From: an uncultured Eubacteriales bacterium
GTDB lineage: Bacteria > Bacillota > Clostridia > Oscillospirales > CAG-272
Direction of reading: 5' to 3'
DNA length: 64,000 nucleotides
Assembly: GCA_934373635.1 (NCBI GenBank)
Contig: CAKROZ010000002.1
Span: 123,540-187,539 of the forward strand
Shown here: positions 20,548 through 59,950 of the stretch, one piece after another
Layout of the letters: the number at the start of each line of letters is the position of its first letter
Numbering within the stretch: position 1 is the stretch's first letter
Made by a program: the position numbers and the translations under genes
Notes under the pieces: model-generated
The model's input: the letters and a program-made list of their open reading frames with translations, nothing else
What the model was told of the DNA's origin: nothing
The model's database searches: none

Positions 20548-22803
20548 TCAATAGTTTTCTTTGGTGATCCACGCAATTACGCCAACGATAGCCTTCGGGG
20601 CGGCGGCATAAGAGAGATCTAATGCGGCGTCGGTTTCACGCTCAAACATTTCATTCATCTGCGCGACGCCTTGGTTATATTCCATCACCGCCTGTACAAG
20701 ATAGGTCTCGGCGTCGATGACGCCTTCGTAAGTCTTATCCTGAAGGGAGGCAAGCGCGACGCGAGCGCGCATAATCAAGACCGCACGTTCAGAGAGATCG
20801 CTCGTCTTTTTCAAAATGGCGACAGAGGTCAAAACCAGCTTGCTGTTTCCTTCCCAAAGAACCACTTCTGCCTCAACGGACGAGAAGGCAATGTTCGCTT
20901 CCACAACCCCGTCGACGGTCAAAAGATCATCCGCGACGCGAAGCGCTCTCGTCTGTTCAAGAAGTTCCTTTTTCCCATGGATGGTACCTACCGCTTTCAA
21001 CTTGTTTACCGCTTTGATATATTCGGCGATCGCCATCCTATCTGCCTCGATCGATTGGCTCATTTCTTCAATTTTGTCGACAGCACACCTAACAGAATTT
21101 GTATAGTCAACGCTTTTATCAGGCGTCCCCGCGCGAATGTACTCAATTTCAAAAAGATTACCGTCGGTGCTCTTCATCAGCTTTTCCGCGCTCATAATAC
21201 ATCCGAGACGAGAGCTCCGCTCGGTAGCGTAAACGGCACGGGAAACAAATGAGAGAAAGGACTCATTATAAGCCACAATGTCATCAAAATATTGTGTCCG
21301 CGACATGTATAGCGCAATCGCATCGGCAACAGGGTGAATAATTTCGCCATCCTCGCCCACCACGAAATAAGAAAGATCGTCGTAATAAGAATTTCTTGCA
21401 GTAGTATATGCCGCATAACGGGTAGCAAAAGTTTTCTCTTCGTCGGCAAGAAGAAGAACAGCCGAGAGAAAAGCAGACGCCTTTTCTTGCGCATTATGTT
21501 TCAATGCGCAAATCCGATCATAAACGGGCACACAAGCTTCAACGCCCGGGTAGGTTTTATCCGGATGAACGCCTTCAAGAGTTTTCAAAATATCGGAATA
21601 GCCCGCGTAATCAAGCCTCGCGGGAACGATATCACACAGGGTGTGAAGAAAAAGCTCGGCATCGGTGTGAATTTTTTCCACCGCGGTGCTCTCGGCATGA
21701 TACTTTTTCAAAGCGATGCCATATTCGGAATCGTCATCGGGATCATCCATGCCTACCGCCAAAATGACGTCGTGGATGTCGTTCATCTCATTGACGAAAG
21801 CAAGGCGCTCTTCGTAGGATTTTTCTGTATCAATCTTCTCCACCGCACGGATCATCTTCTTTGTATAGAAGGTTACTGCAAAAGCGGTATAATGCTCTTT
21901 CTCTCCCATGGAAGCGCCTCCATAAAGCGCCTCATAGGCAAGGGTACCTTTCGTCAAGGTAAAAGCAGGAGAAAGAATAAGAGTGTGAAGAGTGGAAATA
22001 ATTGCTTCTTTCTCCGCGTCGGAGGTTGTCTCGGTATTATAACGATTCACGAGATCAAGGACGGCTTCTTCCGTCTTCATCTGTTTCTCTTCAAAAGTAC
22101 GAAGAAAGGTGCCGAAATAAACCTCGGCATAATCGAGAGTAACCGTAACGCCATTGTTCACCTTTGTCGGAAGACGAAGCGCCAATTCACTCGCTGACGT
22201 GAGATCCGGCGTCGAAATCGTGATCTCGCTTTCTGTCCCGCCGTCCGTTTCCTCGGTGAGTTTCAACGTCACGGTTCTTGCCTCTTTGTCGTAGAAAGTA
22301 GAAAGAGTATAAAAAGTCCCTGCGATAAGAATCATATCGGGAATCGTCGCGGTAATCGGCATGGCGTTCTTATCTGTCAGAGTGTATGTAGTCGTGCCTT
22401 CGGAAGAATCAAAGGCGAAGACGACGTGAGGTGTCTCGCTTTCATCTCCGATGTCAAGCAAGATTCGACCGACATTATCCCCATCAATGCGAAAACGAAA
22501 ATTCGCGCCGAAACTGTCCTTTAACGAGGGAACCACATAAGAAACGTTAGTGGAGGCTTGCATTGCAATGATAGCAGTTCCGTCGCGAAAATCAAACGAT
22601 TCCGGTCTCTGCACATTCAGCAGCTTTGCGTCCTCCGCGGAGTCGAAGGAATCGAAAGCGAAGGCTTTTGTCGTATCATAGTATTCGAGAATGTCGACAA
22701 TCTTCCCGTTCCCCACTTTAGCAAAAGACGTGACGCAAAAGCAGGAGATGAGGACAGTCATCGTCACGCACGCGAGGAAGAGCTTCTTCACCTTTTTTTT
22801 CAT
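20548..22803 (-). CDS. Secreted hypothetical protein (signal peptide, jelly-roll-like N-terminal part, helical C-terminal part), low G+C
   Basis: MKKKVKKLFLACVTMTVLISCFCVTSFAKV is a Sec signal, preceded by AAGGAG. I recognise no motifs. The codon composition is AT-richer than in the neighbours. Confidence 0.6.
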   Translation of the reverse strand: MKKKVKKLFLACVTMTVLISCFCVTSFAKVGNGKIVDILEYYDTTKAFAFDSFDSAEDAKLLNVQRPESFDFRDGTAIIAMQASTNVSYVVPSLKDSFGANFRFRIDGDNVGRILLDIGDESETPHVVFAFDSSEGTTTYTLTDKNAMPITATIPDMILIAGTFYTLSTFYDKEARTVTLKLTEETDGGTESEITISTPDLTSASELALRLPTKVNNGVTVTLDYAEVYFGTFLRTFEEKQMKTEEAVLDLVNRYNTETTSDAEKEAIISTLHTLILSPAFTLTKGTLAYEALYGGASMGEKEHYTAFAVTFYTKKMIRAVEKIDTEKSYEERLAFVNEMNDIHDVILAVGMDDPDDDSEYGIALKKYHAESTAVEKIHTDAELFLHTLCDIVPARLDYAGYSDILKTLEGVHPDKTYPGVEACVPVYDRICALKHNAQEKASAFLSAVLLLADEEKTFATRYAAYTTARNSYYDDLSYFVVGEDGEIIHPVADAIALYMSRTQYFDDIVAYNESFLSFVSRAVYATERSSRLGCIMSAEKLMKSTDGNLFEIEYIRAGTPDKSVDYTNSVRCAVDKIEEMSQSIEADRMAIAEYIKAVNKLKAVGTIHGKKELLEQTRALRVADDLLTVDGVVEANIAFSSVEAEVVLWEGNSKLVLTSVAILKKTSDLSERAVLIMRARVALASLQDKTYEGVIDAETYLVQAVMEYNQGVAQMNEMFERETDAALDLSYAAAPKAIVGVIAWITKENY

Positions 22804-23078
22804 GGCAGTCTCCTTGTGCACCCCCGAGGGGGAGATGTATATAAGTATATATATATTATATCATTCTGTTTTTCAAAAATCAACTTGGCAATATGGCAAA
22901 AAATCGGCAAAAAATTTGTTGCATTTGCACAATAAAAGTAACAGTTCGAAACATCAGAAAACTTGCAAAGACGCTCTGTGGTAACAAAAATATCCGACGG
23001 AAGTTCTTTCACAAAAGGCAAGGAGCAAACAGCCACCCGATGCGAAGGAGCGATATACGAGGCGACCTCACCGCAGGG

Positions 23079-34545: not shown

Positions 34546-35229
34546 TTATCTTTTGCTTGCTTTCCACGCATCGATCTCGGCGGAGAGCCAATCGGCAAAC
34601 GCGCCGACGCCCTCACCGTTCTTCTTTGCGGCGACGGGAAAGATCTTCGCGTTCGGATTGCGCATTTTGATATTTTCCCTGCAACGGTCGAGGTCGAAAT
34701 CGAAGGCGGCGAGGGTATCCGTCTTGCTGATCACGACGGCGTCCGAGACGCGGAAGATGAGGGGATATTTGAGGGGTTTATCGTCCCCTTCGGGCACGGA
34801 GAGGAGCATCGCGCACTTCACGGCGCCCGTATCGAATTCGGCGGGACAGACGAGATTGCCGACGTTTTCGAGAATGACGAGATCCAGCCCGTCGAGTCCG
34901 AGCTCGGTAAGTCCCTGTCTTGTCATATCGGCGTCGAGGTGGCACATGCCGCCCGTATGGAGCTGTATCGTCTTTGCCCCCGTCCGCTCGGCGACCGTCT
35001 TTGCGTCGATGTCGCCGTCGATATCCGCCTCCATGACGCCGATCTTATATTTTTTCGCGAGGAGGGGGATCAGGGCGGTGAGGAAGGTGGTCTTCCCGCT
35101 CCCCGGGCTTGACATCAGGTTCAGAAGGAAAACGCCCTTTTCGCGCAGGGTGTCCCGCAGGCGGTCGGCGTCGCGGTCGTTGTCCGCAAAGACGCTCTCC
35201 TTGATCTCAATGATCCGTATCGCATCCAT
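34546..35229 (-). CDS. hypB: Nickel-incorporation GTPase HypB
   Basis: The P-loop is SSPGSGKTT, GGMCHLDA carries the CH metal site, and ENVGNLVCPA is present. ATG 35229 follows GGAGGAA. Confidence 0.85.
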   Translation of the reverse strand: MDAIRIIEIKESVFADNDRDADRLRDTLREKGVFLLNLMSSPGSGKTTFLTALIPLLAKKYKIGVMEADIDGDIDAKTVAERTGAKTIQLHTGGMCHLDADMTRQGLTELGLDGLDLVILENVGNLVCPAEFDTGAVKCAMLLSVPEGDDKPLKYPLIFRVSDAVVISKTDTLAAFDFDLDRCRENIKMRNPNAKIFPVAAKKNGEGVGAFADWLSAEIDAWKASKR

Positions 35230-35440
35230 AGTTGGTTCCTCCGGCAAGATTTGATCGATTTCAGTATACTATATTCCGCGCGCAAAGTCAACACCCCATA
35301 TTTTAACTTTTTTCGCGCTTATGCGGGCGGGAAAATGCGGGAAATGTAAAAATTTTCCTCCGCTCCTTGCACAAACGAAAAAAATATGCTATCATAAAAC
35401 CATAAAGCAAAAAAGCCGCGCTCGGCGGCGGGAGGGTGCT

Positions 35441-41172: not shown

Positions 41173-42045
41173 TTATTTTGAGAGAATTTCATGCCCGGTT
41201 TCGGTGATCAGGACTTCGTACTCGATCTGTGCCGAGAGGCGTCCGTCCGCCGTGCGGATCGTCCAGCCGTCGCGCACGTCCTCATAGACGCGGGCGGTGC
41301 CGGCATTGATCATCGGCTCGATCGTGAAGATCATGCCCGGGACGAGGAGCAGTCCGCGTCCCTTGAGCCCCGTATGGGCGACGAAGGGATCCTCGTGCAT
41401 CTCGAGCCCGACGCCGTGCCCGCCGATCTCGCGGACGACGCGGAAGCCGTGACGGTGCGCGAGGGTGGAGATGTCATAGCCGATGTCGCCGAGGTGCGAG
41501 GTATAGGGAGCGAGGTGAGAGACGGCAAGTTTCACCGCCTCCTCGGTCACCGAGATCAGCGTCCTTGCCTCCTCGGACACCCGACCGATGGCGTACATAC
41601 GCGAGGCGTCTCCGAAATAGCCGTCATAGATCGTCGTGCAATCCACGTTGACGATATCCCCCTCTTTCAGCACGCACCGCTCGGAGGGGATGCCGTGACA
41701 GACGACCTCGTTGACCGAGGTGCACACCGCCTTCGGAAATCCCTCGAAGCCGAGGCAGGCGGGCTTCCCTCCGAGGGCGCGGGTCTCCCGCATGACAACA
41801 TCGTCGATCTCGGCGGTGGTGATGCCTTCGGCAACGACCTTTGACACCGCGTCGAGGACGGCGGAATTGACCGCGCCCGCCTTGCGGCAACCCTCGATCT
41901 GTGCGGGGGTCTTTCTCATGCGGCGCGGAGGGACGTGCTCCCCGCGGGCGCGGTAGGGGGCTAATGCAAGGTCGGAGGCTTTATGGCAGGCGGCATAGGA
42001 AAGTCCGCTGCCGCAGGGACAGGCTTCATCGTCTTCGGGTATCAT
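41173..42045 (-). CDS. map: Type I methionine aminopeptidase with an N-terminal SEC-C zinc motif
   Basis: The CPCGSGLSYAACH SEC-C motif is present, along with MetAP motifs (VCHGIP, DCTTIYDGYFGD, GHGVG, EPM). Confidence 0.9.
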   Translation of the reverse strand: MIPEDDEACPCGSGLSYAACHKASDLALAPYRARGEHVPPRRMRKTPAQIEGCRKAGAVNSAVLDAVSKVVAEGITTAEIDDVVMRETRALGGKPACLGFEGFPKAVCTSVNEVVCHGIPSERCVLKEGDIVNVDCTTIYDGYFGDASRMYAIGRVSEEARTLISVTEEAVKLAVSHLAPYTSHLGDIGYDISTLAHRHGFRVVREIGGHGVGLEMHEDPFVAHTGLKGRGLLLVPGMIFTIEPMINAGTARVYEDVRDGWTIRTADGRLSAQIEYEVLITETGHEILSK

Positions 42046-42209
42046 GACGGCTCCTTTTTTGAATGTAGGTTTCTTTCTTATTCATTATACCACCGTTTGC
42101 GCGTTTTTTCAACTCCTTTTTTTATGTGAATTTTCACAAAGCCGCTTTTCTCTTTTTGTGCATGTTTATAAAAGAATTTATTTTTTTAGCGAAAAAAGAC
42201 CAGACTCCC

Positions 42210-42238
42210 TTGCAAACGAATAAAGAATATGATAAAAT
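42210..42238 (+). promoter_or_regulatory. SigmaA-type promoter (TTGCAA-17-TAAAAT) of the Cys-rich lipoprotein gene
   Basis: Read directly. A strong RBS, GGAGGAGG, lies 6 nt before ATG 42271. Confidence 0.55.
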
Positions 42239-42270
42239 ATTTTTTGCAAATATTATAGGAGGAGGTTTTC

Positions 42271-45200
42271 ATGAAGAAGAAAATCCTGTTGTTTCTCGCG
42301 GTGTTATGCCTGCTTCTCGGGTTGACCGCCTGCTCTCTCGTCGGTGCGGATCCCTCGACCTGCGAGCATGTTTACACCAACGAGTGCGACGACACCTGTA
42401 ACAAATGCGGCGCGGTGCGCGAAGCCCCGCACGCATATGAGAACGGTTGCTCCACAAAGTGCCCGAAATGCGGCAAGGAGAGAGTCACCGAGCACAAGTA
42501 CGACAACGACTGCGATCCGACCTGCAACGTCTGCGGTGCGGAGAGAATCGTCGAAGGACACAAGTACGATAACGTGTGCGACGCGGTGTGCAACATCTGC
42601 GGTGCGACGCGCGACGTGCCCGATCATGTCTACGCGACGAAGTGCTCTCCGACCTGCACGGTGTGCGGACACGTCCGTCAGGTCAATCATACATATGCGT
42701 CCGCGTGTGCCGAGAAATGTTCGGTCTGCGGCGAGACGCGCGAACCGACCGTCGCGCACGAGTATTCGAGCGAATGCGACACAACCTGCGACAAGTGCGG
42801 AAAGGTGCGCACGACCGAGGTTGCCCACGAATACTTCGGCGAGTGCGCCACCAAGTGCAAGTGGTGCGGCGAGGTGCGTGCGAATAACACCGCACATCGC
42901 TGGTCGGGCGACTGCGACAGCGAGTGCAACGTCTGCCACGAAACAAGAGAGACCACCGTCGAGCATAACTATGACGGCAAAGACTGCCGCGAGACCTGCA
43001 CGGTCTGCGGTGCGCGCCGCGTGTTTGATCCCGACAAGGAACAGCCGGAGCACACCTACGCCGGTCCCTGCTCTGACAGATGCTCGGTGTGCGGAGAGGC
43101 GCGCGAGGTCATCCCTCACAAGTTCTCCTCCGACTGCGACACGACCTGCGACAACTGCGGTGCCACCCGCACGGGAACGCCCGCGCACACCTTCCTCCAC
43201 GACTGCCAGACGAAGTGCGAGTATTGTGACGGTGTGCGGGAGATGCCCGAGGGAATGAGCCACAATTTCGAGTTCGAATGCTCCGAGTTTTGCTCGGTCT
43301 GCAAAGAGGCGAACCCCGACCACAAGGCTCACGACTACGGCAACCTCCCGAATTGTAACGCGGAGTGCGAGAGATGCGGCGCGACGAGAATTCCCCCGCA
43401 CCGCTATCTGTCCGCCTGCGCGGAATTCTGTGCCGACTGCGGTGCCGAACGTCCCAAGGATCAGATTAAGGAAGAGCACAATTATGGCGACCATGCGTGC
43501 CGGGAAACCTGCCTTAACTGCGGAAAGCATCGCTCCGCCTCGGGGAGTCACAACTATGCCAAACCCTCCTGCGACGAAGAGTGCAGTGTGTGCGGCGAGC
43601 TTCGCGAAGCGCCCCATATTTACTCAAGTGACTGCGACGAGGAATGCAATGTTTGCGGTCACAAGCGCAAGGCTCCGCATGGTCACACCTACTCGGGCGG
43701 TTCCGAGAGTTGTGACACGATCTGTAACGTATGCGGTGCCGAAAGAACCACCAAGACGCCACACATCCGCGAACATGTCTGCGACGACATCTGCAAGGTC
43801 TGCGGTGTAAGCATCGGACAGGAAAAGCCCCACATCTACCCTGCGGGCGAAGTGCGTTGCGATACGAAGTGCACGGTCTGCGGCAAGGAAAAGGGCGATC
43901 ACGTCTACGGCGAGAGCGGTCTTGCCGAGGAGTGCGATACCACCTGTAACGAGTGCGGTGCGGTGCGAGAGGCTCCTCACTCCTATCTGAACGACTGCGC
44001 CACCGACTGTCAGCTCTGCGGACAGCGGACGCGCGAGAATCCTCCTCACAACTTCACCTACCGTTGCCAGACGAAGTGCGCGGATTGCGACTACACACGG
44101 GAAGCGGAGGCACATTCCTTCACCTACGAGTGCGATACCGAATGCCCCGTTTGCCACGAGACGCGCGAGGCGCATCACGAGTACGACAGCAACTGCACGC
44201 AGGAGTGCAAGTTCTGTCACAGAATTACCCGCGCGGCGGAGGACGTTCCTCATGAATTTGCGCATCCCGAGTGCGACGAGGTCTGCCCCACCTGCGGTGC
44301 GCCGAATCTCCACGCCGAGGGGCACGACTACAACGGCAGCCCAAGCTGTGACGCGGTCTGCAAATACTGCGGAAGAAAGCAAGGCAACCACACCTACGGC
44401 GATCCCAACATCGGTCTTGCCCCCGAGTGCGACGATGAGTGCAACGTGTGCGGCGACAAGAGGAAAGCTCCGCACTTCTTCGACCATCCGTGCGACGAGA
44501 CCTGCAAGGAATGCGGTAAGGAAAGACTCGACAGAGACGAGCACAAGTACGCAGATGACTGCACCAAGATCTGCGAGGTCTGCGAAAAAGAGACGAGAGA
44601 GAACCCGCCTCACGTGTTCTCCTCCGACTGTGACGAGACCTGTAACGTGTGTGGCTACGTCCGCAAGGGCGGCAAAGGCGGAGAAAAAAATCCCTCGCCT
44701 CACAACTACATCCACAAGTGTCAGACGCACTGCGAGGACTGTGACCACGTTCGCGAAGCGGCGGAAGTAGATCACACCTACACGGCGGGACGCGAGCTTT
44801 GCGACACGGAGTGCCTTGTCTGCCATGAGACGAGAATTCCTCCTCACAAGTATGCAAGCAACTGCGACGAGAAATGCGATATCTGCCTCAAAGAGAGAAC
44901 CCCGACGGAAGGTCACCACTACATCGAGCCCTGCGGAACCATTTGTACCGAATGTAACCAGAGAAGAGCGAGCGGTACTGCGCACTCCTACGACAAGGAA
45001 TACTGCGACACGCAGTGCAAGATCTGCGGCGAAAGGAGAACCCCGACGCACTTCTACAAGACCGATTGCAGCGAAGAGTGCATGTACTGTGACAACGGTA
45101 AGCGCACGCATCTGAAGGATCACACCTATTCGGGCGACTGCGACGTCGTGTGCAACGAGTGCGGAGAAAAGAGAGTCTTAAACGATCCTCATCACGTATA

Positions 45201-45504
45201 CGACAACGACTGCGATCCGACCTGTAACGTCTGCGGTGAGGAGAGAACACCACAGCCGCACGACTACAAGCACACGTGCTCCGAGATCTGCTCTGTCTGC
45301 GGCTACCACCGCACCGACGGTGCCGATCATAAGTACGGCGATCACAGCTGTGCAACGAAGTGCTCCGTGTGCGGGGAGAAGACGAGAAAAGACCCGCCCG
45401 AAAAGCACAAGGACGACAACAAGGACGGAATCTGCGATGAGTGCGGCGAACGCACTTCCACCGGCGATTCCGGCAACATGACCGAGGAGCATCCCTTCTC
45501 CTGA
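42271..45504 (+). CDS. 1077-aa predicted lipoprotein built of 43 tandem H-x-[YF]...C-x3-C-x2-C modules (unassigned family)
   Basis: The signal peptide MKKKILLFLAVLCLLLGLTAC carries an L-T-A-C lipobox. It is followed by 43 consecutive modules, e.g. HKYDNDCDPTCNVCGAERIVEG, all with exact C-x3-C-x2-C spacing, plus a C-x2-C remnant at the end. The gene has its own promoter and terminator. Confidence 0.85.
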   Translation: MKKKILLFLAVLCLLLGLTACSLVGADPSTCEHVYTNECDDTCNKCGAVREAPHAYENGCSTKCPKCGKERVTEHKYDNDCDPTCNVCGAERIVEGHKYDNVCDAVCNICGATRDVPDHVYATKCSPTCTVCGHVRQVNHTYASACAEKCSVCGETREPTVAHEYSSECDTTCDKCGKVRTTEVAHEYFGECATKCKWCGEVRANNTAHRWSGDCDSECNVCHETRETTVEHNYDGKDCRETCTVCGARRVFDPDKEQPEHTYAGPCSDRCSVCGEAREVIPHKFSSDCDTTCDNCGATRTGTPAHTFLHDCQTKCEYCDGVREMPEGMSHNFEFECSEFCSVCKEANPDHKAHDYGNLPNCNAECERCGATRIPPHRYLSACAEFCADCGAERPKDQIKEEHNYGDHACRETCLNCGKHRSASGSHNYAKPSCDEECSVCGELREAPHIYSSDCDEECNVCGHKRKAPHGHTYSGGSESCDTICNVCGAERTTKTPHIREHVCDDICKVCGVSIGQEKPHIYPAGEVRCDTKCTVCGKEKGDHVYGESGLAEECDTTCNECGAVREAPHSYLNDCATDCQLCGQRTRENPPHNFTYRCQTKCADCDYTREAEAHSFTYECDTECPVCHETREAHHEYDSNCTQECKFCHRITRAAEDVPHEFAHPECDEVCPTCGAPNLHAEGHDYNGSPSCDAVCKYCGRKQGNHTYGDPNIGLAPECDDECNVCGDKRKAPHFFDHPCDETCKECGKERLDRDEHKYADDCTKICEVCEKETRENPPHVFSSDCDETCNVCGYVRKGGKGGEKNPSPHNYIHKCQTHCEDCDHVREAAEVDHTYTAGRELCDTECLVCHETRIPPHKYASNCDEKCDICLKERTPTEGHHYIEPCGTICTECNQRRASGTAHSYDKEYCDTQCKICGERRTPTHFYKTDCSEECMYCDNGKRTHLKDHTYSGDCDVVCNECGEKRVLNDPHHVYDNDCDPTCNVCGEERTPQPHDYKHTCSEICSVCGYHRTDGADHKYGDHSCATKCSVCGEKTRKDPPEKHKDDNKDGICDECGERTSTGDSGNMTEEHPFS
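42367..45405 (+). repeat. Coding tandem repeat: 43 diverged units of ~63-90 nt
   Basis: I segmented the units by hand from the translated sequence. The units have diverged at the DNA level, except for one near-identical pair (42499-42546 and 45199-45246). Confidence 0.85.
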
Positions 45505-45520
45505 TCGATCTTTCATTCAC

Positions 45521-45556
45521 GAGGACTGTCCCGCGGGTGACTGCGGGACAGTCCTC
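45521..45556 (+). terminator. Hairpin terminator of the Cys-rich lipoprotein gene
   Basis: GAGGACTGTCCCGC-GGGTGACT-GCGGGACAGTCCTC is a perfect 14-bp stem. Confidence 0.75.
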
Positions 45557-45762
45557 CCCGTTTGTAGATCTGCCGCGCGGCGGCGGGTTCGCTTCAGGAT
45601 CCCGCGCTTGCGGTATGCTTCTTTGGAAATGCCGCTTCGGCGGCGCCGGTTTCTTTCGTTTTCCGAACCGACGGAGCGATCTTTTCGCATTTTGAACCGA
45701 CGGAGCGATTTTCTTCCTCCCGAATGTCCGAAGGCTAAGGCTCCGAAAACTTTCCGATCTAA

Positions 45763-45798
45763 CACCGAATTTATCACCGAATTTATCACCGAATTTAT
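45763..45798 (+). repeat. Perfect 12-bp x3 tandem repeat (CACCGAATTTAT) upstream of the purine permease gene
   Basis: Read directly. Other CCGAA-containing motifs and a 16-bp direct repeat (GAACCGACGGAGCGAT at 45665 and 45694) lie nearby. Confidence 0.8.
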
Positions 45799-45842
45799 AA
45801 AAGAAAGGCTTTCCGACGCGACGCGTCGAAAAAAACAAGACA

Positions 45843-47237
45843 ATGAATTCCATCAAAAAGTTTTTCAAACTGGAAGAACACGGCACGACCGTGAAAACAG
45901 AGCTTCTCGCAGGTCTGACGACCTTCTTCGCCATGGTATACATCCTGATGGTCAACGCGGGCATGTTCACCGCGACGGGCGTATCCTACGGCGCCATCTA
46001 CATTGCGACAGCCATCTCTGCCGTCATCGGTACGGTGCTGATCGGTCTGCTTTCCAACCTTCCCTTGGCGCAGGCGAGCGGCATGGGGCTGAACGCATTC
46101 TTCGTTTACACCGTTTGCATCGGCTTCGGATTTACCTATGCGAACGCGCTCGTGCTCGTGCTGATCGACGGTCTCGTCTTCATTGCGCTGACGCTGACGG
46201 GACTTCGCAAGAAGATCTTCGAGGCGATTCCCGACGCGGTGCGCGTCGCCATCCCGGCGGGTATCGGTCTGTTCATCGCGTTCCTCGGTCTTCAGAATGC
46301 GAAGATCGTGATCCCGAGCACCTCGACGGGTGTCACGCTCGGCTCCTTCAACCTTCTCTCCCAGCCTTGGGGCAACGTCATGCCGATGCTCGTCACCATC
46401 GCGGCATTCCTTGCCATCGCCATCATGGCGAAGAAAAATGTCAAGGGTGCGGTGCTTTACGGCATTCTCGGCGGTGCGGCGCTCTATTACCTGCTCGGTC
46501 TGACCGTTCCCGATTTCTATGCGAACCTCGGAATTACGCTTTCGAGCCCGTTTGACGCGTTCGGCGAATTCTTCAACGAGTCTTTCTTCAAGGTCTTCAC
46601 CGAGGGCTTTGACTTCTCGGCTTACGCCGCGGCAAACGGCACGGCGAACCTCATCCTGATGATCCTGACCACCTCCCTTGCCTTCTGCATGGTCGACATG
46701 TTCGACACCATCGGCACGCTGTACGGCGCCTGCGCGAGAGGCAACCTGCTGACCAAAGAGGGAGAGGTCCCGAACATGGATCGCGCCATGCTCGCCGATG
46801 CTATCGCAACGACGACGGGTGCCATCTGCGGTACCTCCACGGTCACGACCTTCGTCGAGTCCTCCGCGGGTGTTGCCGAGGGCGGACGCACGGGTCTCTC
46901 CTCCATGGCGACCGCGTTCTTCTTCCTTGTGGCGATGTTCCTCTCCCCGATCGCACAGCTGATTCCCTCCTGCGCGACGGCGGCGGCGCTCATCTACGTC
47001 GGCGTCCTCATGATGTCCTGCGTGACGAAGATCGACTGGCAGTCGCCCGAGAGCGCGATCCCCGCGTTCCTCACGCTTGCCATGATGCCCTTCTCCTACA
47101 ACATCTCCTACGGTATCGCCTTCGGTCTGATTTCCTATGTCGTGCTTCACGCCTTCACGGGCAAAATCCGTGAAATCAAGGTCGGGACATGGGTCATTAC
47201 CCTGCTCTTCCTTGCGATGCTTCTCATGACGCACTGA
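45843..47237 (+). CDS. NCS2/AzgA-family purine (adenine/guanine/hypoxanthine) permease
   Basis: MNSIKKFFKLEEHGTTVKTELLAGLTTFFAMVYILMVN is the hallmark N-terminus of AzgA/PbuG-type permeases. About 12 TM segments are present. Confidence 0.85.
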   Translation: MNSIKKFFKLEEHGTTVKTELLAGLTTFFAMVYILMVNAGMFTATGVSYGAIYIATAISAVIGTVLIGLLSNLPLAQASGMGLNAFFVYTVCIGFGFTYANALVLVLIDGLVFIALTLTGLRKKIFEAIPDAVRVAIPAGIGLFIAFLGLQNAKIVIPSTSTGVTLGSFNLLSQPWGNVMPMLVTIAAFLAIAIMAKKNVKGAVLYGILGGAALYYLLGLTVPDFYANLGITLSSPFDAFGEFFNESFFKVFTEGFDFSAYAAANGTANLILMILTTSLAFCMVDMFDTIGTLYGACARGNLLTKEGEVPNMDRAMLADAIATTTGAICGTSTVTTFVESSAGVAEGGRTGLSSMATAFFFLVAMFLSPIAQLIPSCATAAALIYVGVLMMSCVTKIDWQSPESAIPAFLTLAMMPFSYNISYGIAFGLISYVVLHAFTGKIREIKVGTWVITLLFLAMLLMTH

Positions 47238-53146: not shown

Positions 53147-56100
53147 TTACAGGTCGGAGGGGGCAATCGGCTTGCCTGCTTTAACATAATCTTCCGCCGA
53201 GGCGGCGTAGGCGTAGAGTCTCGCGGCGAAGTCGGGGATGAAGTCCGCCTTGATACCTACGACGTAGGTATCGAGATCGTAGGAGCCTTTGGCAATGACG
53301 GTCGAACCGTCGGTATCCTTCGCGGTCAGGGTGAGGGGCTTTCTCATATCGGCAACCGACATGGTGACGAGGATGTACGCGTCACCGCCTTCGGTATAGT
53401 TGAAGTTATGGGAGACTTCCTTTCCGCTGTTGTCCGTATAGGAGACCGTCAGTATGCCGCGGAAGTCACTCTTGACACGGAAGGCGAAGGCGGGCGTGTC
53501 GTCAAGGCTCAGGCTCGCGCCGAAGAGGACCTTCGAGAGCGTGCCGAGATCTGCTACCTGTTCGCTGTAGTCCGGCGTTGAGGGCGTTCTGCCTTCGAGG
53601 AGGGCATCCACTCTCGCGGTGTCGCGATCTGCGGCAGGGGTGAAGTAGCAATATGCCGCGCGGATGTAGGCGAGCATATCTACGACGAGCTGTTCCGTCT
53701 CTTTGCTCGGGTCACCCGCGAGGAGCTTCTCCGCGTAAGCACAGACGGAAAGCGTCATGGTCTTCTCATACTCCGTTCCGTCACTCGACTTCGCGGAAAT
53801 CACAAGGGAAATGTCGTTTGCCGCGTCCCTCGGGGTCATATCGGCGTAAGAAATCACGTAGTAGGACTTGCCGTCGCTCAGGGTAACGGTACTGTCGAGC
53901 GTGTATTCCTTGCCACCGAGCGTGACACCCGTAATCACCGTTGCATCCGCGGGGATGTACAGGTTGTAGGTGAAGTTTGCGGTGAGGGTAAGATTCTCCT
54001 TCATGGGAAGCAGGAAGACGAAAGTCGGAGATATCGCAACGTCACCCGTCAGAGGCGTATCGTACCGGTAAATGCCCGTGATGTACTTATCACCCGTCGG
54101 GATCTCGGTATCGTTCGTCGGGATCTCGCCCTTCTTCCAGAGCTCCTTCGTCTCGCTTGTACCGTTCTTCCACGTGACGGTCGCGGTATCCGCGCTCGCG
54201 CAGGTCTCATAGAGAAGTGTGCCGCGATAGGTAGTGTTGAAAATGGTGATCGCCATTTCGGTAGGAGCAACGCGAGCGTAGACCAAATCGTCGGAGGCAA
54301 AGGTCGTGTTGGCAACCTTCGCATCGGTCACGAAGCGACAACCCGCCCCGAAGGTAACGGGAAACTGAGCATGTACGTTGAATTTGCCTGTTTCCGCGAA
54401 GATCAGGGTGTTCTCGATGGTTGCGGTACCCGAGCTTGCCGTTTCGTTGTCCTTATGGTACTCGTCTGTAAGAGCAAAACCGCCTTTGATGTAGATCTCA
54501 CTGTTCTTGATGGTTGCCGTGAAGCCGTTGCCAGAACGTGCGCCGAGGATGGCCTTGACTTCCGACGCGATAAAGCAATTGTCAATTGTCAGTTTTCCGA
54601 TGCTGTGCTTGAATTGGAAGAGACCGGTGTTATCGCTGACATCGGCAAGGTAGGTAATGTTCGAGAAGTACGCCGTACCGTTCAGTACAAGAATTGCACA
54701 CGTGCCCGACAGACGGAAATTCTCCCTGTCGTAGACGGTACCCTTGGCGTCCGTACCGACTTTCAGCGTGGAATTCTCCGACACCATCATCGCAAATCCG
54801 CCCGTATTGGAGCGAAGGTATGCGCCGGGCTTCGAGGAATAGACATACGCGGTCTTGCCGGATGCCACATCGATCAGGTTGCCGCGGCCTTCGACCTTGG
54901 TCGAGGTGGTGTAGGTGTGTCCGTTGATGTCAAGCTCGATACCGTTGCCGTTGAGGTAAAGCTCCGCATTCGGGATGTCGTAGTCGGTGTGCATGATGAC
55001 ACGGGAGGCATCGGTGATGGCTTCCACAGCCTTCTTAAAGGTTGCGAAGTCGGTCTCGGTGTACGCCTCGATCTTTCCGTCGGGGCGAATGACGACAAAA
55101 GACATTCTGACACGATTCACACGCGCGGTCGCTACGATGCCGGCGCCCGCCATGTAATCTTCTACCGCGAGGTTCGTAATGATGCCGCCGTTCATGACGT
55201 AGATCCACTCGCCGTTCGGGATGAAGGCATAGCGATCGTCCGATGTGTCAATGCTTGCGAAAACCACCGGGTTCGCACAGGTGATCGTCGTACCGGGGAG
55301 CCAGTAATCCTTCGAGGACACGGCGCCGCTCTTCCACTCGACGGTGACAACATCGGTCAGCTTCGCCGTGCGGTATGCTACGGTGTAGGTATGCGTCTTG
55401 CCGTTTCCGTCGGTGAAGGTCACCGTCGGTGCGTGAGCCACGCAGAGCTCGTTCCCTGTCGTAAAGCCGGAGGGCATATGAGTGAGTGAAACATTGCCCG
55501 AAAGGTTCAGGATAAAGCTACCCGCTTTTCCTACCGCGGCACCGTAAACAAGGGAGTCGGAGATATTCAGGCTACCCGTGCCCTCATCCGTGCCGACAAA
55601 GGAAGCGTCCATGCTGAGGTAAATTTTACATTTCGATGCCGTCAAATTGCCTGTGCACTCAGACTTCACGTTCATTACGCATCCGTTTGTAAAAATCGTC
55701 GCGTTCTCTAATGTGATATTGACAGAGCCGTAATCATTCATCGCGGTTATCGCACTTTTTACGTAGTAGATCCCACCGTCAACATGAAGATTGTACGTGT
55801 ATATCGTCCCCTGTGACTTGCCATTGTCATAGAGGCGTGCAGCGTATATCGTCAGGTTGTCACCGACGTAAATGTTACCGTCGAGTGCCTTAACGGTACC
55901 GATGTACACGTGACTGCCCCCGCGACTGTAGTTTAGAATGAGATTACCGTCAGCATTAATTGCGGCGCCCTTTTTGCTTGAATAGATATAATAACTTTTC
56001 GTTCCTTTGAAGCTATAAAAATAATTTGACGTCGTTATACTATGTCCGTTTAAATCGATATATATATCGACAACATTTTCTTTATTGCTGGTATTGATGC

Positions 56101-59100
56101 CGACCGTGCCCGTCATATTCCTGCAAAAAGTAACAGTGATTCTCCCGTTTGCTTTGTTGGCGCCCAGTATCTCCAATCGTTTCCCGATTTCAGAAAAGCT
56201 CTCCGAACAGATATACTCTACCGTAGAGAAATAGGAAATGGTAGCGTAAACTTCTTTCTCTCTTTCCCCGATATGGTTCGCCTCGGCATAGATGGTAGCG
56301 CCCTTCAGAGAATCGGGAATCGCATCGAATGTGAGAAGATTACCTTTCGCATCCTTAAAAATCCATTTATCGTCCGTCGAAAAAAGCCAACCTTCAATGA
56401 CAAGCCCATTGCGCGTTGGGACAGTGCCTACAAGCCACTTGCCAATCGTTCCATCCTGCCAGATGACAGTAACAAAATTTCTTTCGAATTCGGTATAGAT
56501 GCTTGAGGTAGCGTCAATAGTCTTACCGAGGAATTTCGTCAGTTCTTCCGAAGGAACGAAATGCGTGGTTTTTGTCATGGTTATCAAACCATCGACAAGT
56601 TTTGTATTCGACGAACCGATTGCGGGAATCAGGCACCCTTCACCGATGACAATGCGTCCCTTCGCACCGGCGACGTTGACGTTACCGTCGTACACTTCGG
56701 TATTTGTCATATAAACCGTGCCCGAAGGGTCGGCACCTGTGGCACCCGGATCTTTTGTTACGAAACTTGCTCCTTTTCCGCCCATATGAATACGGCAATT
56801 CTTTATATGGATTTCCGCACCGTTTGCATTCTGGAAAGAGATAAAGGAACGTGTTGTGTAAATTTCCGCGTTAAGAATTCTGAAATCCTTCAGCCCGGTT
56901 CGTGTAATAATTGGCGCCTTAAAGTCGTTGAGGGTAGCGAAATAATGACCGCCGTCAATCGTAACGGGGTAGTCAAATTCCGAATTGATCAGACAACCAC
57001 CCGACATAGTGAGATTTTCGCCCTTAAAAGTTTTGTCCAGCGTCGGATTATAAACGGTACCGAGGATAAGTTCGCCTTTCATCTTATCAAAGATGGCCGG
57101 AGTTGTTTTATCTTTGGCTGCGTAGCTCTGTTCTTTCCCGTCAATGACAACGGGAACAATGCGCAAGTAACCGCCCTTCTTCGAGGAATAAAGGCGCGTG
57201 GTCGCGGTGATCTGGAATGGAGAATACTTTGCTACGTCGGCATTTCCGTTCGATGTGATTGTATGTCCGTTCAAATCAATGTAAACATTGCCGACACTGA
57301 TCGACGCCTCAACATAGTAATCACAAGCGAAAACAAAGGTTGTGTCATTCCTGGCACCCGTAAGAGCAGCAGGAATCTGTGATTCTTCTTTCAAAACGGT
57401 GACCTTCCCGTCCCTGCTATACAAGTATGCGCAATAGTCCCTCACCGTCTCGCTCTCCGGATAAACATCAAAATGTCTATCGATGTCTGCGGCAGTAACC
57501 TTTGTCAGCGGGATGCCGTGGATGCGGTCACGCACCCATTCCTTAAAGATGTGAAGTGTGCCGTCCGATAATTCCACCGCTGCCGTAAATCCAATGCCCG
57601 GGGAGGGCATCGAGCCATAGAGGGCAGGAACGTCTTTCACAAGGACGGTACCATCCAAGTTATAGAAGGTGTAGTATGCCTTTCTGACCGTTCTCGTGAA
57701 GACGTAAGTGCCGTTGCCCTTATCCTCCGCATCAAACCCCTCATGAGTGAAATCGCCGGTAAATCCGTTCATGACAAGGGTCATCGGACGATCAATGACA
57801 AGCACATTCGTAAGGTTTCGAAGAAGTTCTAAGGTCCCGCCCTCCCGAAGTACTGCGAGTGCCTCGGTGACACTGCCATACTCGACACCGTTCACGCGAG
57901 CCGCGGGCGACTTCGGAAGCTCATACTCAGTGCTCCACATAACGTCACGGTACATCTTCTGATTGAGATTGGTCATCTGATTGTCAAAGAGCTCGGAGAG
58001 AGAACCGTTATACGCCTTATCAAAAGTCTGAAGGGTGACGTTATCAAAGCAGAGCGTCGCGCCCTCGGGATTATTGCTCGCGGGAATGAAGCGGTAATCG
58101 TCGATCTTGACAATCGAAGGATTTCTTATCTCATTCCAGTAGTTTTGGCTCAGCGTAACGATACGTTCCCCGTTGATGAAGAGAGCGGTAGACAAATCGG
58201 TACCCGTTTTCCCCCTTGATTGTGACACGAGGGTGACATGCGCCCATTCTCCCGCGCCAAATTCAACGGATCTGCCACCCATAGAGAGTACCATTTTTCC
58301 GTTCTTGCGTGCAACGGTAAGAAGCGTTGAATAATAAGAGTTACCACCACTGTTTCTGCCAATCTGGTTGAATGATCCTTCCGCAACCACGTCCTCAAAA
58401 GAAATGTCGAATTCAACGGCAAAGTAAGAAAGGTTCTCGAGCATCGACTGACCGAACGGCATCGACATGTAACCTCCGGATCCTTTAGGATTGGAGTTGC
58501 CGGACGCATCAAGTGTAGCATAGTAACGATAATAGCCGTTGCCGTTCGCAAAAGCAATTCCTGACTTGCCGTAAGTTGCATCAGCCCCGCCCGGATGAGA
58601 CATTCCGTCGCTTTCGCAGTCGTTCGAATAAACAATTTTTCCTGTAGTTGGCGCTTTTTTCTCTACATACGAGGGGTAAAGGTCAAAATGAGAATAGATC
58701 TCTCCCGCAGTAACGGCAGTCAGGGGAGATTCACCAAACACCAGCCATTCCTTGAAAACATGATACCCGTTTGCATCATCAAAAACAAGCTGCAATCTCG
58801 TTCCCTCGTAAATCGGAAGGGCACCGATGGGAACGGGAATGTCCTCACCTTCCGGTTCACCGTAGGGACCGTCCGGGTAGAAGGTGAAATACGCAAAGCG
58901 ATCGGTCTTTCGGAAGGAATAAATGGTGTTTCCGTCCCGATCGAAGGTTGACAAAGCGAAATCCCCCGGCTTCCATGTGAATCTGTGGCCGTTGGCATTC
59001 ACGGTAACCGCACTCGTAATTGTCACGTTTGAGGCATCATCGTAAAGCTTTACCTCATAGCCGTCCTTCGCGGCATCAAACGCCGCCTGTACGCTGTCAT

Positions 59101-59950
59101 AGGCGGTCTCATAGCCTGCAAGATTATAAACACCTGCACGCGTCCTGCCATAGGGGAATTTATAGCCTTTGTGATAGGCGACATCGTATTCCGCCTCCTC
59201 GAGAGAATGTTCGTTTCCGTCAAAAAGTCCCGTGAGGTTACCGTCATAATCTTTTCCGTAAATCGCCATCTTTACGTTGTCGATGCACACGGTCGCATCG
59301 CTTACGGCCTGTTTGAAAGACTGAATGCGGAAGCCGACAAGGTTCAGCGACCCTTTATAAAGCACGGACTTCTGTGTAAAAGCGAGCTTTCCGTTCACGT
59401 AAGTCAGAAGAACCGAATTATCCTCTTCAACGACATTCTTATTGTCGACTTTACAATCGATCTGCAAAACGTATGTGATATGTACCCACGAATAGCTATC
59501 GCCGGGAATCTCGAAGGTTTCGTTCGTCGTTATGGCGGTAAGTTGTGCGATACCGTCCGCATTAGACGAAACGGACATGGTATGAGTTCCCCTTGCCGAA
59601 CCACCCTCGCCACGCGTCATAAAGTATAGGTTTGTTCCCTTCCCCGACTCGTAGGTCGTTTCGGTCATCAGGTCGAAGTCAAGCGTCAAATATGCCCACG
59701 TACCATCGAACGCGTCACCCTGCGTTGCTCCGAAGTCATAGTAATTACGCGACGCCGTATAGATGTACGACAAGTAAGAGTTCCCGTCCATTTCGTTGGT
59801 ATGAATTCTGCCGGATGCCGTTTCGCCGGTGTCACAATTGTCATCTATCAGGATTTTCTTTGAGTAATCTGCCGACGAAGCCACCGCAAAGACGCCGCAA
59901 AGCATCGCGAGGACAAGAAACAATATCACAAGTTTGCCCGTTTTTTTCAT
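53147..59950 (-). CDS. 2267-aa secreted modular protein (2x LamG/jelly-roll-like modules, Listeria-Bacteroides-repeat-like units, 3x right-handed beta-helix-like modules, unknown C-terminal region)
   Basis: The signal peptide is MKKTGKLVILFLVLAMLCGVFAVASSA, preceded by GAGGAG. Duplicated N-terminal modules end in CIDNVKMAIYGKDYDGNLTGLFDG and CFDNVTLQTFDKAYNGSLSELFDN. Three modules open with VYIDLNGHTIT (~57286), IYIDLNGHSIT (~56072) and IELDINGHTYT (~54950). I see no LPXTG, SLH or choline-binding motif. Confidence 0.8.
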   Translation of the reverse strand: MKKTGKLVILFLVLAMLCGVFAVASSADYSKKILIDDNCDTGETASGRIHTNEMDGNSYLSYIYTASRNYYDFGATQGDAFDGTWAYLTLDFDLMTETTYESGKGTNLYFMTRGEGGSARGTHTMSVSSNADGIAQLTAITTNETFEIPGDSYSWVHITYVLQIDCKVDNKNVVEEDNSVLLTYVNGKLAFTQKSVLYKGSLNLVGFRIQSFKQAVSDATVCIDNVKMAIYGKDYDGNLTGLFDGNEHSLEEAEYDVAYHKGYKFPYGRTRAGVYNLAGYETAYDSVQAAFDAAKDGYEVKLYDDASNVTITSAVTVNANGHRFTWKPGDFALSTFDRDGNTIYSFRKTDRFAYFTFYPDGPYGEPEGEDIPVPIGALPIYEGTRLQLVFDDANGYHVFKEWLVFGESPLTAVTAGEIYSHFDLYPSYVEKKAPTTGKIVYSNDCESDGMSHPGGADATYGKSGIAFANGNGYYRYYATLDASGNSNPKGSGGYMSMPFGQSMLENLSYFAVEFDISFEDVVAEGSFNQIGRNSGGNSYYSTLLTVARKNGKMVLSMGGRSVEFGAGEWAHVTLVSQSRGKTGTDLSTALFINGERIVTLSQNYWNEIRNPSIVKIDDYRFIPASNNPEGATLCFDNVTLQTFDKAYNGSLSELFDNQMTNLNQKMYRDVMWSTEYELPKSPAARVNGVEYGSVTEALAVLREGGTLELLRNLTNVLVIDRPMTLVMNGFTGDFTHEGFDAEDKGNGTYVFTRTVRKAYYTFYNLDGTVLVKDVPALYGSMPSPGIGFTAAVELSDGTLHIFKEWVRDRIHGIPLTKVTAADIDRHFDVYPESETVRDYCAYLYSRDGKVTVLKEESQIPAALTGARNDTTFVFACDYYVEASISVGNVYIDLNGHTITSNGNADVAKYSPFQITATTRLYSSKKGGYLRIVPVVIDGKEQSYAAKDKTTPAIFDKMKGELILGTVYNPTLDKTFKGENLTMSGGCLINSEFDYPVTIDGGHYFATLNDFKAPIITRTGLKDFRILNAEIYTTRSFISFQNANGAEIHIKNCRIHMGGKGASFVTKDPGATGADPSGTVYMTNTEVYDGNVNVAGAKGRIVIGEGCLIPAIGSSNTKLVDGLITMTKTTHFVPSEELTKFLGKTIDATSSIYTEFERNFVTVIWQDGTIGKWLVGTVPTRNGLVIEGWLFSTDDKWIFKDAKGNLLTFDAIPDSLKGATIYAEANHIGEREKEVYATISYFSTVEYICSESFSEIGKRLEILGANKANGRITVTFCRNMTGTVGINTSNKENVVDIYIDLNGHSITTSNYFYSFKGTKSYYIYSSKKGAAINADGNLILNYSRGGSHVYIGTVKALDGNIYVGDNLTIYAARLYDNGKSQGTIYTYNLHVDGGIYYVKSAITAMNDYGSVNITLENATIFTNGCVMNVKSECTGNLTASKCKIYLSMDASFVGTDEGTGSLNISDSLVYGAAVGKAGSFILNLSGNVSLTHMPSGFTTGNELCVAHAPTVTFTDGNGKTHTYTVAYRTAKLTDVVTVEWKSGAVSSKDYWLPGTTITCANPVVFASIDTSDDRYAFIPNGEWIYVMNGGIITNLAVEDYMAGAGIVATARVNRVRMSFVVIRPDGKIEAYTETDFATFKKAVEAITDASRVIMHTDYDIPNAELYLNGNGIELDINGHTYTTSTKVEGRGNLIDVASGKTAYVYSSKPGAYLRSNTGGFAMMVSENSTLKVGTDAKGTVYDRENFRLSGTCAILVLNGTAYFSNITYLADVSDNTGLFQFKHSIGKLTIDNCFIASEVKAILGARSGNGFTATIKNSEIYIKGGFALTDEYHKDNETASSGTATIENTLIFAETGKFNVHAQFPVTFGAGCRFVTDAKVANTTFASDDLVYARVAPTEMAITIFNTTYRGTLLYETCASADTATVTWKNGTSETKELWKKGEIPTNDTEIPTGDKYITGIYRYDTPLTGDVAISPTFVFLLPMKENLTLTANFTYNLYIPADATVITGVTLGGKEYTLDSTVTLSDGKSYYVISYADMTPRDAANDISLVISAKSSDGTEYEKTMTLSVCAYAEKLLAGDPSKETEQLVVDMLAYIRAAYCYFTPAADRDTARVDALLEGRTPSTPDYSEQVADLGTLSKVLFGASLSLDDTPAFAFRVKSDFRGILTVSYTDNSGKEVSHNFNYTEGGDAYILVTMSVADMRKPLTLTAKDTDGSTVIAKGSYDLDTYVVGIKADFIPDFAARLYAYAASAEDYVKAGKPIAPSDL

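Follow-up and report, generated by a model that had tools for sequence, protein, structure and literature searches.

A lipid-anchored array of 43 tandem Cys3His modules in a Clostridia bacterium: a candidate metal-stapled surface stalk

A stretch of 64,000 nucleotides (nt) from an uncultured Eubacteriales bacterium (contig CAKROZ010000002.1; the whole stretch is called here the window, and all gene coordinates are counted within it) contains at positions 42271–45504 of the plus strand, according to its open reading frame (ORF) list, a gene for a lipoprotein of 1077 amino acids (aa) made almost entirely of small modules rich in Cys and His, and the questions raised by this locus are which of these residues share a site, what the sites hold and what such a chain might do at the cell surface. 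An earlier note on this DNA had counted 43 C-x3-C-x2-C modules with about 134 Cys and had proposed one Cys3His metal site in each. The answer reached here, on balance the probable one, is that the protein is a Sec-exported, lipid-anchored rod of 44 interleaved Cys3His sites, likely occupied by zinc, which would form a stalk of fixed length presenting a conserved tip.

The module counts proved exact: the protein contains 134 Cys and exactly 43 C-x3-C-x2-C motifs spaced at 21–30 aa, where about two would be expected from composition alone (1070 positions × 0.124^3), and no such motif was found in other frames or ORFs of the window. By motif counts the 43 tandem modules, H-x-[YF]-x3-C-x3-C-x2-C-G-x2-R, extend from Cys39 to Cys1034 (42385..45375, +). 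A His is present within 14 residues upstream of the first Cys in all 43 modules, in 30 of them exactly 6 residues ahead, and is followed at the second residue by Tyr or Phe in 28; Gly comes directly after the third Cys in 31 modules, Arg stands four residues past it in 33, and four modules read C-x2-C-H. The example peptide of the earlier note, HKYDNDCDPTCNVCGAERIVEG, was found at residues 75–96, and the note's statements on the invariant His with the usual x-Tyr/Phe, on Gly in 31 of 43 modules, on the usual Arg past this Gly and on the four C-x2-C-H modules all agreed with the recount. The array makes up 88% of the protein. Hydrophobic residues are scarce in its modules (LIVMFW only 11%), which are polar and acidic; the 1077 aa include 70 His and 42 Tyr, Cys reaches 12.4% of residues, and the mature protein has 196 Asp+Glu against 118 Lys+Arg.

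Apart from those of the motif there are only five Cys: C13 in the signal peptide, C21 in the lipobox L-T-A-C, C31, C1055 and C1058. The N-terminus MKKKILLFLAVLCLLLGLTAC, with its KKK n-region and hydrophobic core, matches the PROSITE PS51257-type lipobox pattern (42271..42333, +), which makes Cys21 the predicted lipid-modified mature N-terminus. Judged by a charged n-region, a hydrophobic h-region and a lipobox [LVI][ASTVI][GAS]-C within the first ~35 residues, the protein has the sequence features of a lipoprotein processed by signal peptidase II (SPII), the processing itself being predicted; there is no twin-arginine motif in the signal peptide, and in both respects the earlier assignment was sustained. 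Array-end statistics and allele conservation mark a short N-terminal cap, C31-E-H33 (42361..42369, +). At the other end the array closes, as read from the sequence, with a half-module lacking the first Cys, H1046-x8-C1055-x2-C1058-G-E-R (45406..45453, +), past which only the 16-aa C-terminal tail TSTGDSGNMTEEHPFS remains (45454..45501, +), predicted to be the membrane-distal tip.

The window protein used as a query retrieved 651 related proteins. A profile was further built from six-module segments, with the window protein as its first row, and run against clusters at 50% identity (1.84 billion representatives), resulting in 2,407 clusters at E<=1e-3 and 531 at E<=1e-30; the named sources of relatives were Clostridia, Lachnospiraceae and Oscillospiraceae metagenome-assembled genomes. 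Such a profile search had been suggested as a check of whether a family exists, and the result, at least 2,407 clusters, shows that many proteins share the module, which matched no family in Pfam, NCBIfam or PDB. By these searches it is a large unnamed family of extracellular proteins, mostly from Clostridia. For further comparison a set of 219 relatives with 3,356 modules was retrieved, among which 195 N-termini were Sec-like, 46 lipobox-like and one had an RR motif. A typical relative had ~13 strict modules, none of the 219 had 43 or more, and the array share in the other retrieved relatives was at most 58%, compared to 88% in the window protein. A metagenome contig scan found no relative, and an exact-sequence cluster look-up had no entry for the 1077-aa protein.

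This module set made it possible to ask which residues belong to one site. Of 1,671 modules 96.2% had the module His, and where it was replaced, Cys was most frequent. A Cys two residues ahead of the His (C-x-H) occurred in 38 of 84 true first modules (45%) versus 2 of 2,032 internal ones (0.1%), and 17 more true first modules (20%) had His at or beside this -2 position. The first Cys was absent from its usual position in 98 of 141 true last modules versus 127 of 1,843 internal modules. After a module without the first Cys, a C-x-H module followed in 32 of 174 cases versus 2 of 2,229 otherwise (odds ratio 251, p 1e-35). Finally, among 53 internal modules without any Cys near the first-Cys position 42 were compensated, 26 of these by His: in 16 a C-x-H module came next, in 19 the follower had an extra His just ahead of its module His (H-x-H in the examples seen), and in 7 a His was present at or near the gap.

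These co-variations are most simply read as showing alternative ligands for site k: either the first Cys of module k-1 or the residue two positions ahead of the His of module k. Site k would then probably take its His and both knuckle Cys from module k and its remaining Cys, the first of the triad, from module k-1, so that the triad would not be one site. Applied to the window protein, this rule gives 44 sites which take up the 132 mature Cys (the lipidated C21 excepted) and 44 His with no orphan: the proposed site 1 is C31/H33/C43/C46, site 2 is C39/H54/C64/C67 and site 44 is C1027/H1046/C1055/C1058. Cys31 is proposed to substitute for the first Cys that a preceding module would donate to site 1, and the terminal half-module to close site 44 together with Cys1027; the interleaved rule thus accounts for both the extra C31 and the C-terminal C-x2-C. 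Two other assignments were rejected. A self-contained site of a His and the triad of the same module leaves C31 unexplained and does not predict the loss of the first Cys in last modules, and a site of the triad with the following His provides no partner for the first His or for C31 and breaks down at the array ends too. The earlier proposal of one Cys3His site per module was therefore upheld in its four-ligand composition and modified in its assignment: the first Cys probably goes to the site of the next module, and the sites would number 44, not 43.

Three giant relatives outside the window (P0122, P0123 and P0129) have several hundred Cys, 463 in the 5,478-aa P0122, and mix three module variants, called here type A (C-x3-C between the first and second Cys, the window form), type B (C-x5-C) and type C (C-x10-C), examples of the variants being ALGHTWVDATCTTPKTCSVCG and H...PTCTETGLTEGKxCxxCG. 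All three types retain one His and three Cys, and no Pfam, NCBIfam or PDB entry covering any of them was found. At one junction of P0122 a C-x-H module comes right after one without the first Cys, which is consistent with the ligand-sharing rule.

Sets of three Cys and one His of this kind very probably represent four-ligand metal sites, and the metal is most likely zinc, as far as can be judged from the ligand pattern. Structural Cys3His sites usually contain zinc, which is able to bind after export, and the C-x2-C-G hairpin is the usual metal-knuckle signature. The argument of the earlier note that disulfides cannot use all three Cys of a unit stood: a periodic all-disulfide pattern is impossible by parity, and a missing Cys is often replaced by His. 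The interchange of Cys and His at the ligand positions, in both directions, argues against disulfides. A metal-free scaffold, in which a disulfide would join the modules at each junction, every module would keep one free thiol and the His would have some other role, is nonetheless to be considered, since the array-end effects alone also fit a first Cys bonded to a Cys of the next module, and the mature Cys count of 132 is even. We regard it as very unlikely: His, which cannot form a disulfide, compensates the missing Cys in 26 of 42 cases, it is mostly Cys that takes the place of the module His, a C-x2-C-G hairpin of the metal-knuckle kind is predicted, and stable extracellular disulfides would hardly be expected in the reducing gut for a host of anaerobic type.

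The same ligands may also be asked to bind a redox cofactor. Cys3His ligation of iron-sulfur (Fe-S) clusters is known from mitoNEET-type proteins and from distal clusters of hydrogenases, C-x3-C-x2-C is the radical-SAM spacing, and the sites would lie close together along the chain; the result would be an extracellular electron conduit of Fe-S clusters or haem. However, the signal is of the Sec/SPII type, with no motif for twin-arginine translocation (Tat) here or in 218 of 219 relatives, and no system for assembling Fe-S clusters outside the cytoplasm is known; the composition of the modules is polar and acidic, Pfam gave no match to Fer4 or radical-SAM, the triad is apparently split over two sites, the C-x2-C-H sequence is limited to 4 modules and is not kept from allele to allele, and the modules are found together with dockerin, LRR and SLH proteins, which have no redox role. 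The Sec/SPII route, the polar modules and the ordinary secreted partner domains weigh against Fe-S or haem, the unconserved C-x2-C-H modules argue that these are not haem sites, and the absence of radical-SAM, haem or Tat context claimed earlier was borne out on all counts (no Pfam match, Sec/SPII signal, C-x2-C-H not conserved). A redox chain is, thus, extremely unlikely; interleaved sites holding Fe-S or another redox metal would make a haem-free conduit of 44 centres through the Gram-positive wall, of a kind undescribed so far, and the chance of this seems equally slight. The radical-SAM motif has identical Cys spacing and its triad binds one [4Fe-4S] in the cytoplasm, in contrast to the Cys3His protein, which is exported, has 43 copies of the motif and no radical-SAM domain, and whose first Cys is placed in another site than the remaining two. 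A radical-SAM enzyme was rejected on the same grounds (PF04055 not matched, an exported lipoprotein, the first Cys behaving as a ligand of another site), and so was a c-type cytochrome: in 3 of the 4 C-x2-C-H modules one or more orthologous alleles have Gly, Asn or Glu in place of the His.

What the array may be for is best seen in relatives with further domains. Domain layouts were mapped in 10 multidomain homologues, in which the arrays adjoin, or separate, head and anchor domains. The heads were LRR_5, endonuclease, CAP, transglutaminase, 5'-nucleotidase, CBM_4_9 and cohesin, and the anchors dockerin, SLH, choline-binding repeats and lipobox. The array stands between LRR_5 and dockerin in P0004, between LRR_5 and SLH in P0083, between SLH and transglutaminase in P0039, between a lipobox and 5'-nucleotidase in P0043 and, with 35 modules, between seven CBM_4_9 domains and choline-binding repeats in P0121; it follows an endonuclease in P0032, a cohesin in P0037 and a CAP domain in P0024. 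From these layouts the array appears to act in multidomain relatives as a stalk between a wall or membrane anchor and a working head, and a stalk role is favoured for the window protein as well. Its position beside or between head and anchor in the 10 homologues supports a stalk better than buffering, storage or a redox surface; among the roles listed by the earlier note the structural spacer thus gained support, and metal buffering or storage and a redox-active surface were less supported.

The stalk explanation can be put as a sequence of steps. The protein would be exported by Sec and then lipid-anchored at the cell surface, where the mature chain would fold outside the cell into what we infer to be a continuous rod with 44 tetrahedral Cys3His sites. 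The stretch of four residues between the first and second Cys of each module would tie adjacent metal sites, so that the chain would be cross-braced serially and would not resemble beads on a string. The 43-module stalk and the short invariant C-terminal peptide would hold this putative tip off the membrane, possibly through the wall, and exposed non-ligand residues would evolve quickly around the fixed ligands.

Conservation of the locus was followed in four further syntenic loci fetched via GroEL variants, which allowed a comparison of six alleles from three lineages; in every locus compared the syntenic orthologue was flanked on one side by the methionine aminopeptidase gene and on the other by that of the purine permease. 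A GTDB representative genome contains an orthologue of full length that is 86% identical, the identity among the three lineages is ~62%, and the identical protein is encoded on two independent assemblies. Each full-length allele has 134 Cys and 43 modules (42 strict modules in one allele), all 134 Cys columns are kept in the six alleles, and all 44 proposed sites hold at least one His in every allele. No change in module copy number was seen among the alleles, and the modules correspond one-to-one; length differences are confined to the loops between knuckle and His or between His and first Cys and never fall within C-x3-C-x2-C. Most conserved are the signal peptide (residues 1–23 are nearly invariant in five full-length alleles), the first four modules, the last half-module and the tail; C31 and the terminal half-module segment are kept in all alleles, in contrast to the four C-x2-C-H modules, which are not conserved. 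In the tail SGNMTEEHPF is identical at 10 of 10 positions across the three lineages with synonymous differences present, indicating selection on the protein.

The substitution rates were consistent with this. Compared to the L011 locus the gene had a nonsynonymous rate (dN) of 0.30, a synonymous rate (dS) of 1.15 and a dN/dS of 0.26, or 0.37 outside the Cys and His codons, and compared to the closer L003 locus a dN/dS of 0.30 with synonymous change in 10 Cys codons. From these comparisons, with syntenic copies in three or more related lineages, the gene is real and under selection. It also evolves fast: the dN of its neighbours versus L011 was 0.007 for GroEL, 0.037 for the permease and 0.094 for the aminopeptidase, which makes that of the target gene 3–40 times higher, with dS also raised (1.15 versus 0.52–0.82), and GroEL is 98.9–99.6% identical between genomes where the Cys3His protein is only 62–86% identical.

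Such divergence would also suit a variable surface coat or decoy, in which the stapled scaffold displays a dense, fast-changing and acidic surface against host immunity, phages or proteases, with length and tip being secondary. The known parallel would be the Cys-rich variant surface proteins (VSPs) of Giardia, which likewise are Cys-rich (~12%) surface proteins of an anaerobic gut organism with regular C-x2-C, reported zinc binding and a variable exterior on a fixed Cys framework (PMC2996952). The low identity relative to GroEL, the high dN, the dN/dS of 0.37 outside Cys and His and the acidity of the mature protein all fit this coat. Yet dN/dS is well under 1, and relaxed constraint explains the data equally well as diversifying selection; the strictly kept module number and one-to-one correspondence are not required by a coat, and the gene is single-copy in the window, with no switchable paralogue family there. 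We therefore hold the coat to be unlikely. The VSPs, moreover, have a C-terminal transmembrane anchor ending in CRGKA, belong to a switchable multigene family and bind zinc only sub-stoichiometrically (PMC2996952), in contrast to the window protein, which has no sequence relationship with them, an N-terminal lipid anchor, a strict periodicity and a single copy in the window.

A last alternative is an extracellular metal buffer or store, in which the 44 sites capture, hold and release zinc or another thiophilic metal, or detoxify Cd or Cu. It is favoured by the 44 predicted high-affinity sites per chain, by the head-less protein consisting of sites alone and by a gene for a CobW/COG0523-type GTPase ~7 kb upstream (window ~34546–35247, -). 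This explanation appears quite unlikely: the module is an interdomain spacer in the multidomain homologues examined, a strict module number is not expected from a sponge, metal exchange in structural Cys3His sites is normally slow, no metal transporter was found adjoining the gene, and no Zur-box-like site was found near it, the four weak matches elsewhere being no more than expected by chance. The neighbours of the gene are unrelated housekeeping genes. The divergent one encodes a methionine aminopeptidase (41173–42045, -) with a faint, low-confidence Pfam match to SEC-C; both the GTPase and the aminopeptidase are zinc-related by family, and no functional link was found.

Several points weigh against the stalk of interleaved sites. 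The window protein has no head domain, and the stalk logic taken from its relatives may not carry over to it. The interleaved assignment comes from array-end statistics and rare variants, and the ends are not uniform: 30% of true first modules show no obvious extra ligand and 30% of true last modules retain the first Cys. In addition, the structure searches found no solved structural relative, which leaves the fold without an experimental anchor.

Residues 28–159 (six modules) were modelled with AlphaFold2 using an alignment of 65 six-module segments. The prediction had a mean pLDDT (predicted local distance difference test) of 93 with almost no regular secondary structure: one bridge pair was predicted per module, connecting the residue before the second Cys with the residue three past the third Cys, which in the model is a tight hairpin around C-x2-C-G, and in the last two of the six modelled modules only, both the second Cys and the Tyr that follows the His were bridge residues as well. 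The predicted bridges fit the proposed ligand geometry: the hairpin register, if extended, would set the first Cys opposite the position six residues past the third Cys, which with the shortest linker is two residues ahead of the next His. Foldseek gave no match to PDB with E<=0.001; its weak matches (best E ~1) were mostly zinc-finger-type proteins with poor root mean square deviation.

Sequence searches of Pfam, NCBIfam and PDB with the whole protein, six-module segments and the profile gave nothing above threshold (0 Pfam families on the whole protein, none in NCBIfam or PDB), in line with the earlier statement that the module belongs to no named domain family. No Pfam zinc-finger model reached threshold among weak matches to Zn_Ribbon_1 and others; Zn_Ribbon_1 (PF13240) was rejected with a best score of 20.9 bits versus a cut-off of 25 and 9 of 23 profile positions covered. 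ATE_N (PF04376) had no match in the window protein; homologous arrays scored 28–31 bits over profile positions 36–63 only, some of them passing the gathering threshold (31.2 versus 27 bits) over 28 of 72 positions, and this was judged a repeat-driven false match with partial scores summed across repeats. The above-threshold C1_1 match of the C-x5-C and C-x10-C variants was dismissed as short partial matches summed over repeats, and the matches to DUF5834 and DUF4363 were partial only. The ATE_N and C1_1 matches are likely to mislead automatic annotation. Metallothioneins are small and extremely rich in Cys, which is arranged in C-C, C-x-C and C-x-x-C clusters, and they contain little His and few aromatic residues; with 12.4% Cys, only x3 and x2 spacings within modules, no C-C or C-x-C, 70 His and 42 Tyr, the window protein is not one of them. 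Nor is it a fibrillar-adhesin-like protein in the definition of Monzon et al., having the array and the anchor and no adhesive or head domain (0 Pfam families), although several of its homologues are.

The stalks of fibrillar adhesins (Ig-like, Rib, SpaA) are nevertheless the closest functional parallel to the mapped homologues: they are small tandem domains between anchor and head, evolve fast and set the reach by their copy number (PMC8286594). The survey of 82 stalk families by Monzon et al. (2021) names in its text neither cysteine nor zinc (PMC8286594). The surveyed families are presumably autonomous folded domains, in contrast to the Cys3His unit of ~22 aa with little secondary structure and few hydrophobics, which is apparently held by metal ligands common to neighbours and which, in the window protein, carries no head. 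Zinc knuckles, zinc ribbons and RING fingers are alike in the C-x2-C-G turn with a beta-bridge, in four Cys/His ligands and in His-Cys interchange. The RING cross-brace uses its ligands in an interleaved fashion. All of these are, however, intracellular, whereas the Cys3His protein is Sec-exported and its interleaving would be serial through 44 sites instead of two. Cys-rich tandem repeats forming the stalk of a surface protein are known from Myxococcus TraA and similar proteins of an aerobic diderm, where they are thought to be disulfide-based; they share no sequence similarity with the Cys3His array, and TraA has no invariant His. No description of the module was found in the literature, peptide strings included, and what would be new is a widespread, probably metal-based stalk module with unusual interleaved sites.

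The gene has its own expression signals. A promoter-like site identified by promoter scan (42210..42238, +) comprises TTGCAA, a 17-nt spacer and a TG-extended TAAAAT, with 9 of 12 consensus matches plus the TG extension; both hexamers and the TG are kept in the syntenic genes of L003, L011, L012 and L013, with varying flanking bases, so that the site claimed earlier is present and conserved, the wording "near-consensus" being slightly generous. The ribosome-binding site GGAGGAGG (42258..42265, +) reads directly from the sequence 5 nt upstream of the ATG, as claimed, and its GGAGG core is kept in related genomes. Directly past the stop codon folding energy reveals a hairpin with a 16-bp stem (45521..45556, +; -40.7 kcal/mol, z-score -6.8), which is kept in relatives with changes on both arms that look paired in the aligned sequences, as judged by eye. 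It is likely a terminator or an mRNA-stabilising element: the stable conserved hairpin supports the earlier claim of an own terminator, but a clear U-run is absent and a simple terminator scan did not call it. The gene G+C of 0.566 is inside the range of the window, in agreement with a native gene. No tandem repeat at the DNA level was found in the gene, which marks the modules as old, diverged and kept by protein-level selection. An Rfam scan of 41900–46000 gave nothing real, riboswitches included.

Two short DNA elements flank the gene. In the divergent promoter region between the aminopeptidase and Cys3His genes a palindrome TGTGAATTTTCACA (TGTGAA-nn-TTCACA; window 42125–42138) sits in a ~60-nt block that hardly varies among related genomes; the palindrome resembles a CRP/FNR- or Rex-type operator whose spacing is unusual. 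The purine-permease gene is closely preceded by a perfect 3 × 12-bp tandem repeat CACCGAATTTAT (window 45763–45798), which is missing from the matching region of related genomes. Between groEL and the permease gene two of the loci have an inserted FokI-like type IIS restriction-modification pair (D12 methyltransferase and FokI domains; L008 9931–13626 and L009 5292–8989), and L012 holds a different, 572-aa insert there; from these inserts the groEL-permease interval beside the Cys3His gene looks like a small variable hotspot.

Elsewhere in the window, a gene at 53147–59950 (-) in a lower-GC patch (0.47–0.49) encodes a secreted protein of 2,267 aa; it begins with a signal peptide, contains only 24 Cys and has large repeats within the chain, and its counterparts in relatives are 2,250–2,271 aa long with no Pfam domain recorded. 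A second low-GC patch (0.477–0.50) holds a gene at 20548–22821 (-) for a 757-aa secreted protein or lipoprotein without obvious repeats.

The GroEL of the window is 98–100% identical to several metagenomic GroELs, its named relatives belonging to Clostridiales, Oscillospiraceae/Ruminococcaceae and Clostridia, and a spoIIAA-spoIIAB-sigma-factor-like operon is located beside groES in related genomes; the GroEL relatives together with the spoIIA genes point to a spore-forming Clostridia bacterium as the host. The record of L003 (CAVEOF010000042.1) is titled 'Coriobacteriaceae bacterium', and its GroEL is 99.6% identical to that of the window; the label is probably a binning or naming error.

If the stalk explanation is true, at least 2,400 clusters of surface proteins, mostly from uncultured Clostridia and including cellulosome-type (dockerin/cohesin), LRR-containing and enzyme-bearing proteins, would share a stalk of metal-stapled mini-modules, which would represent an extracellular use of zinc-finger-like chemistry in bacteria and a plausible way for strict anaerobes to stiffen very small extracellular domains without disulfides. 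It would also be a new building principle, in which each site shares a short peptide with its neighbour and the array becomes one rod. Naming the module would improve the annotation of hypothetical gut surface proteins and end the false ATE_N and C1 labels, and a rigid metal-dependent repeat of 22 aa would be a candidate spacer for protein engineering. Finally, with room for 44 metal ions in each copy, the protein might be relevant to the zinc economy at the cell surface.

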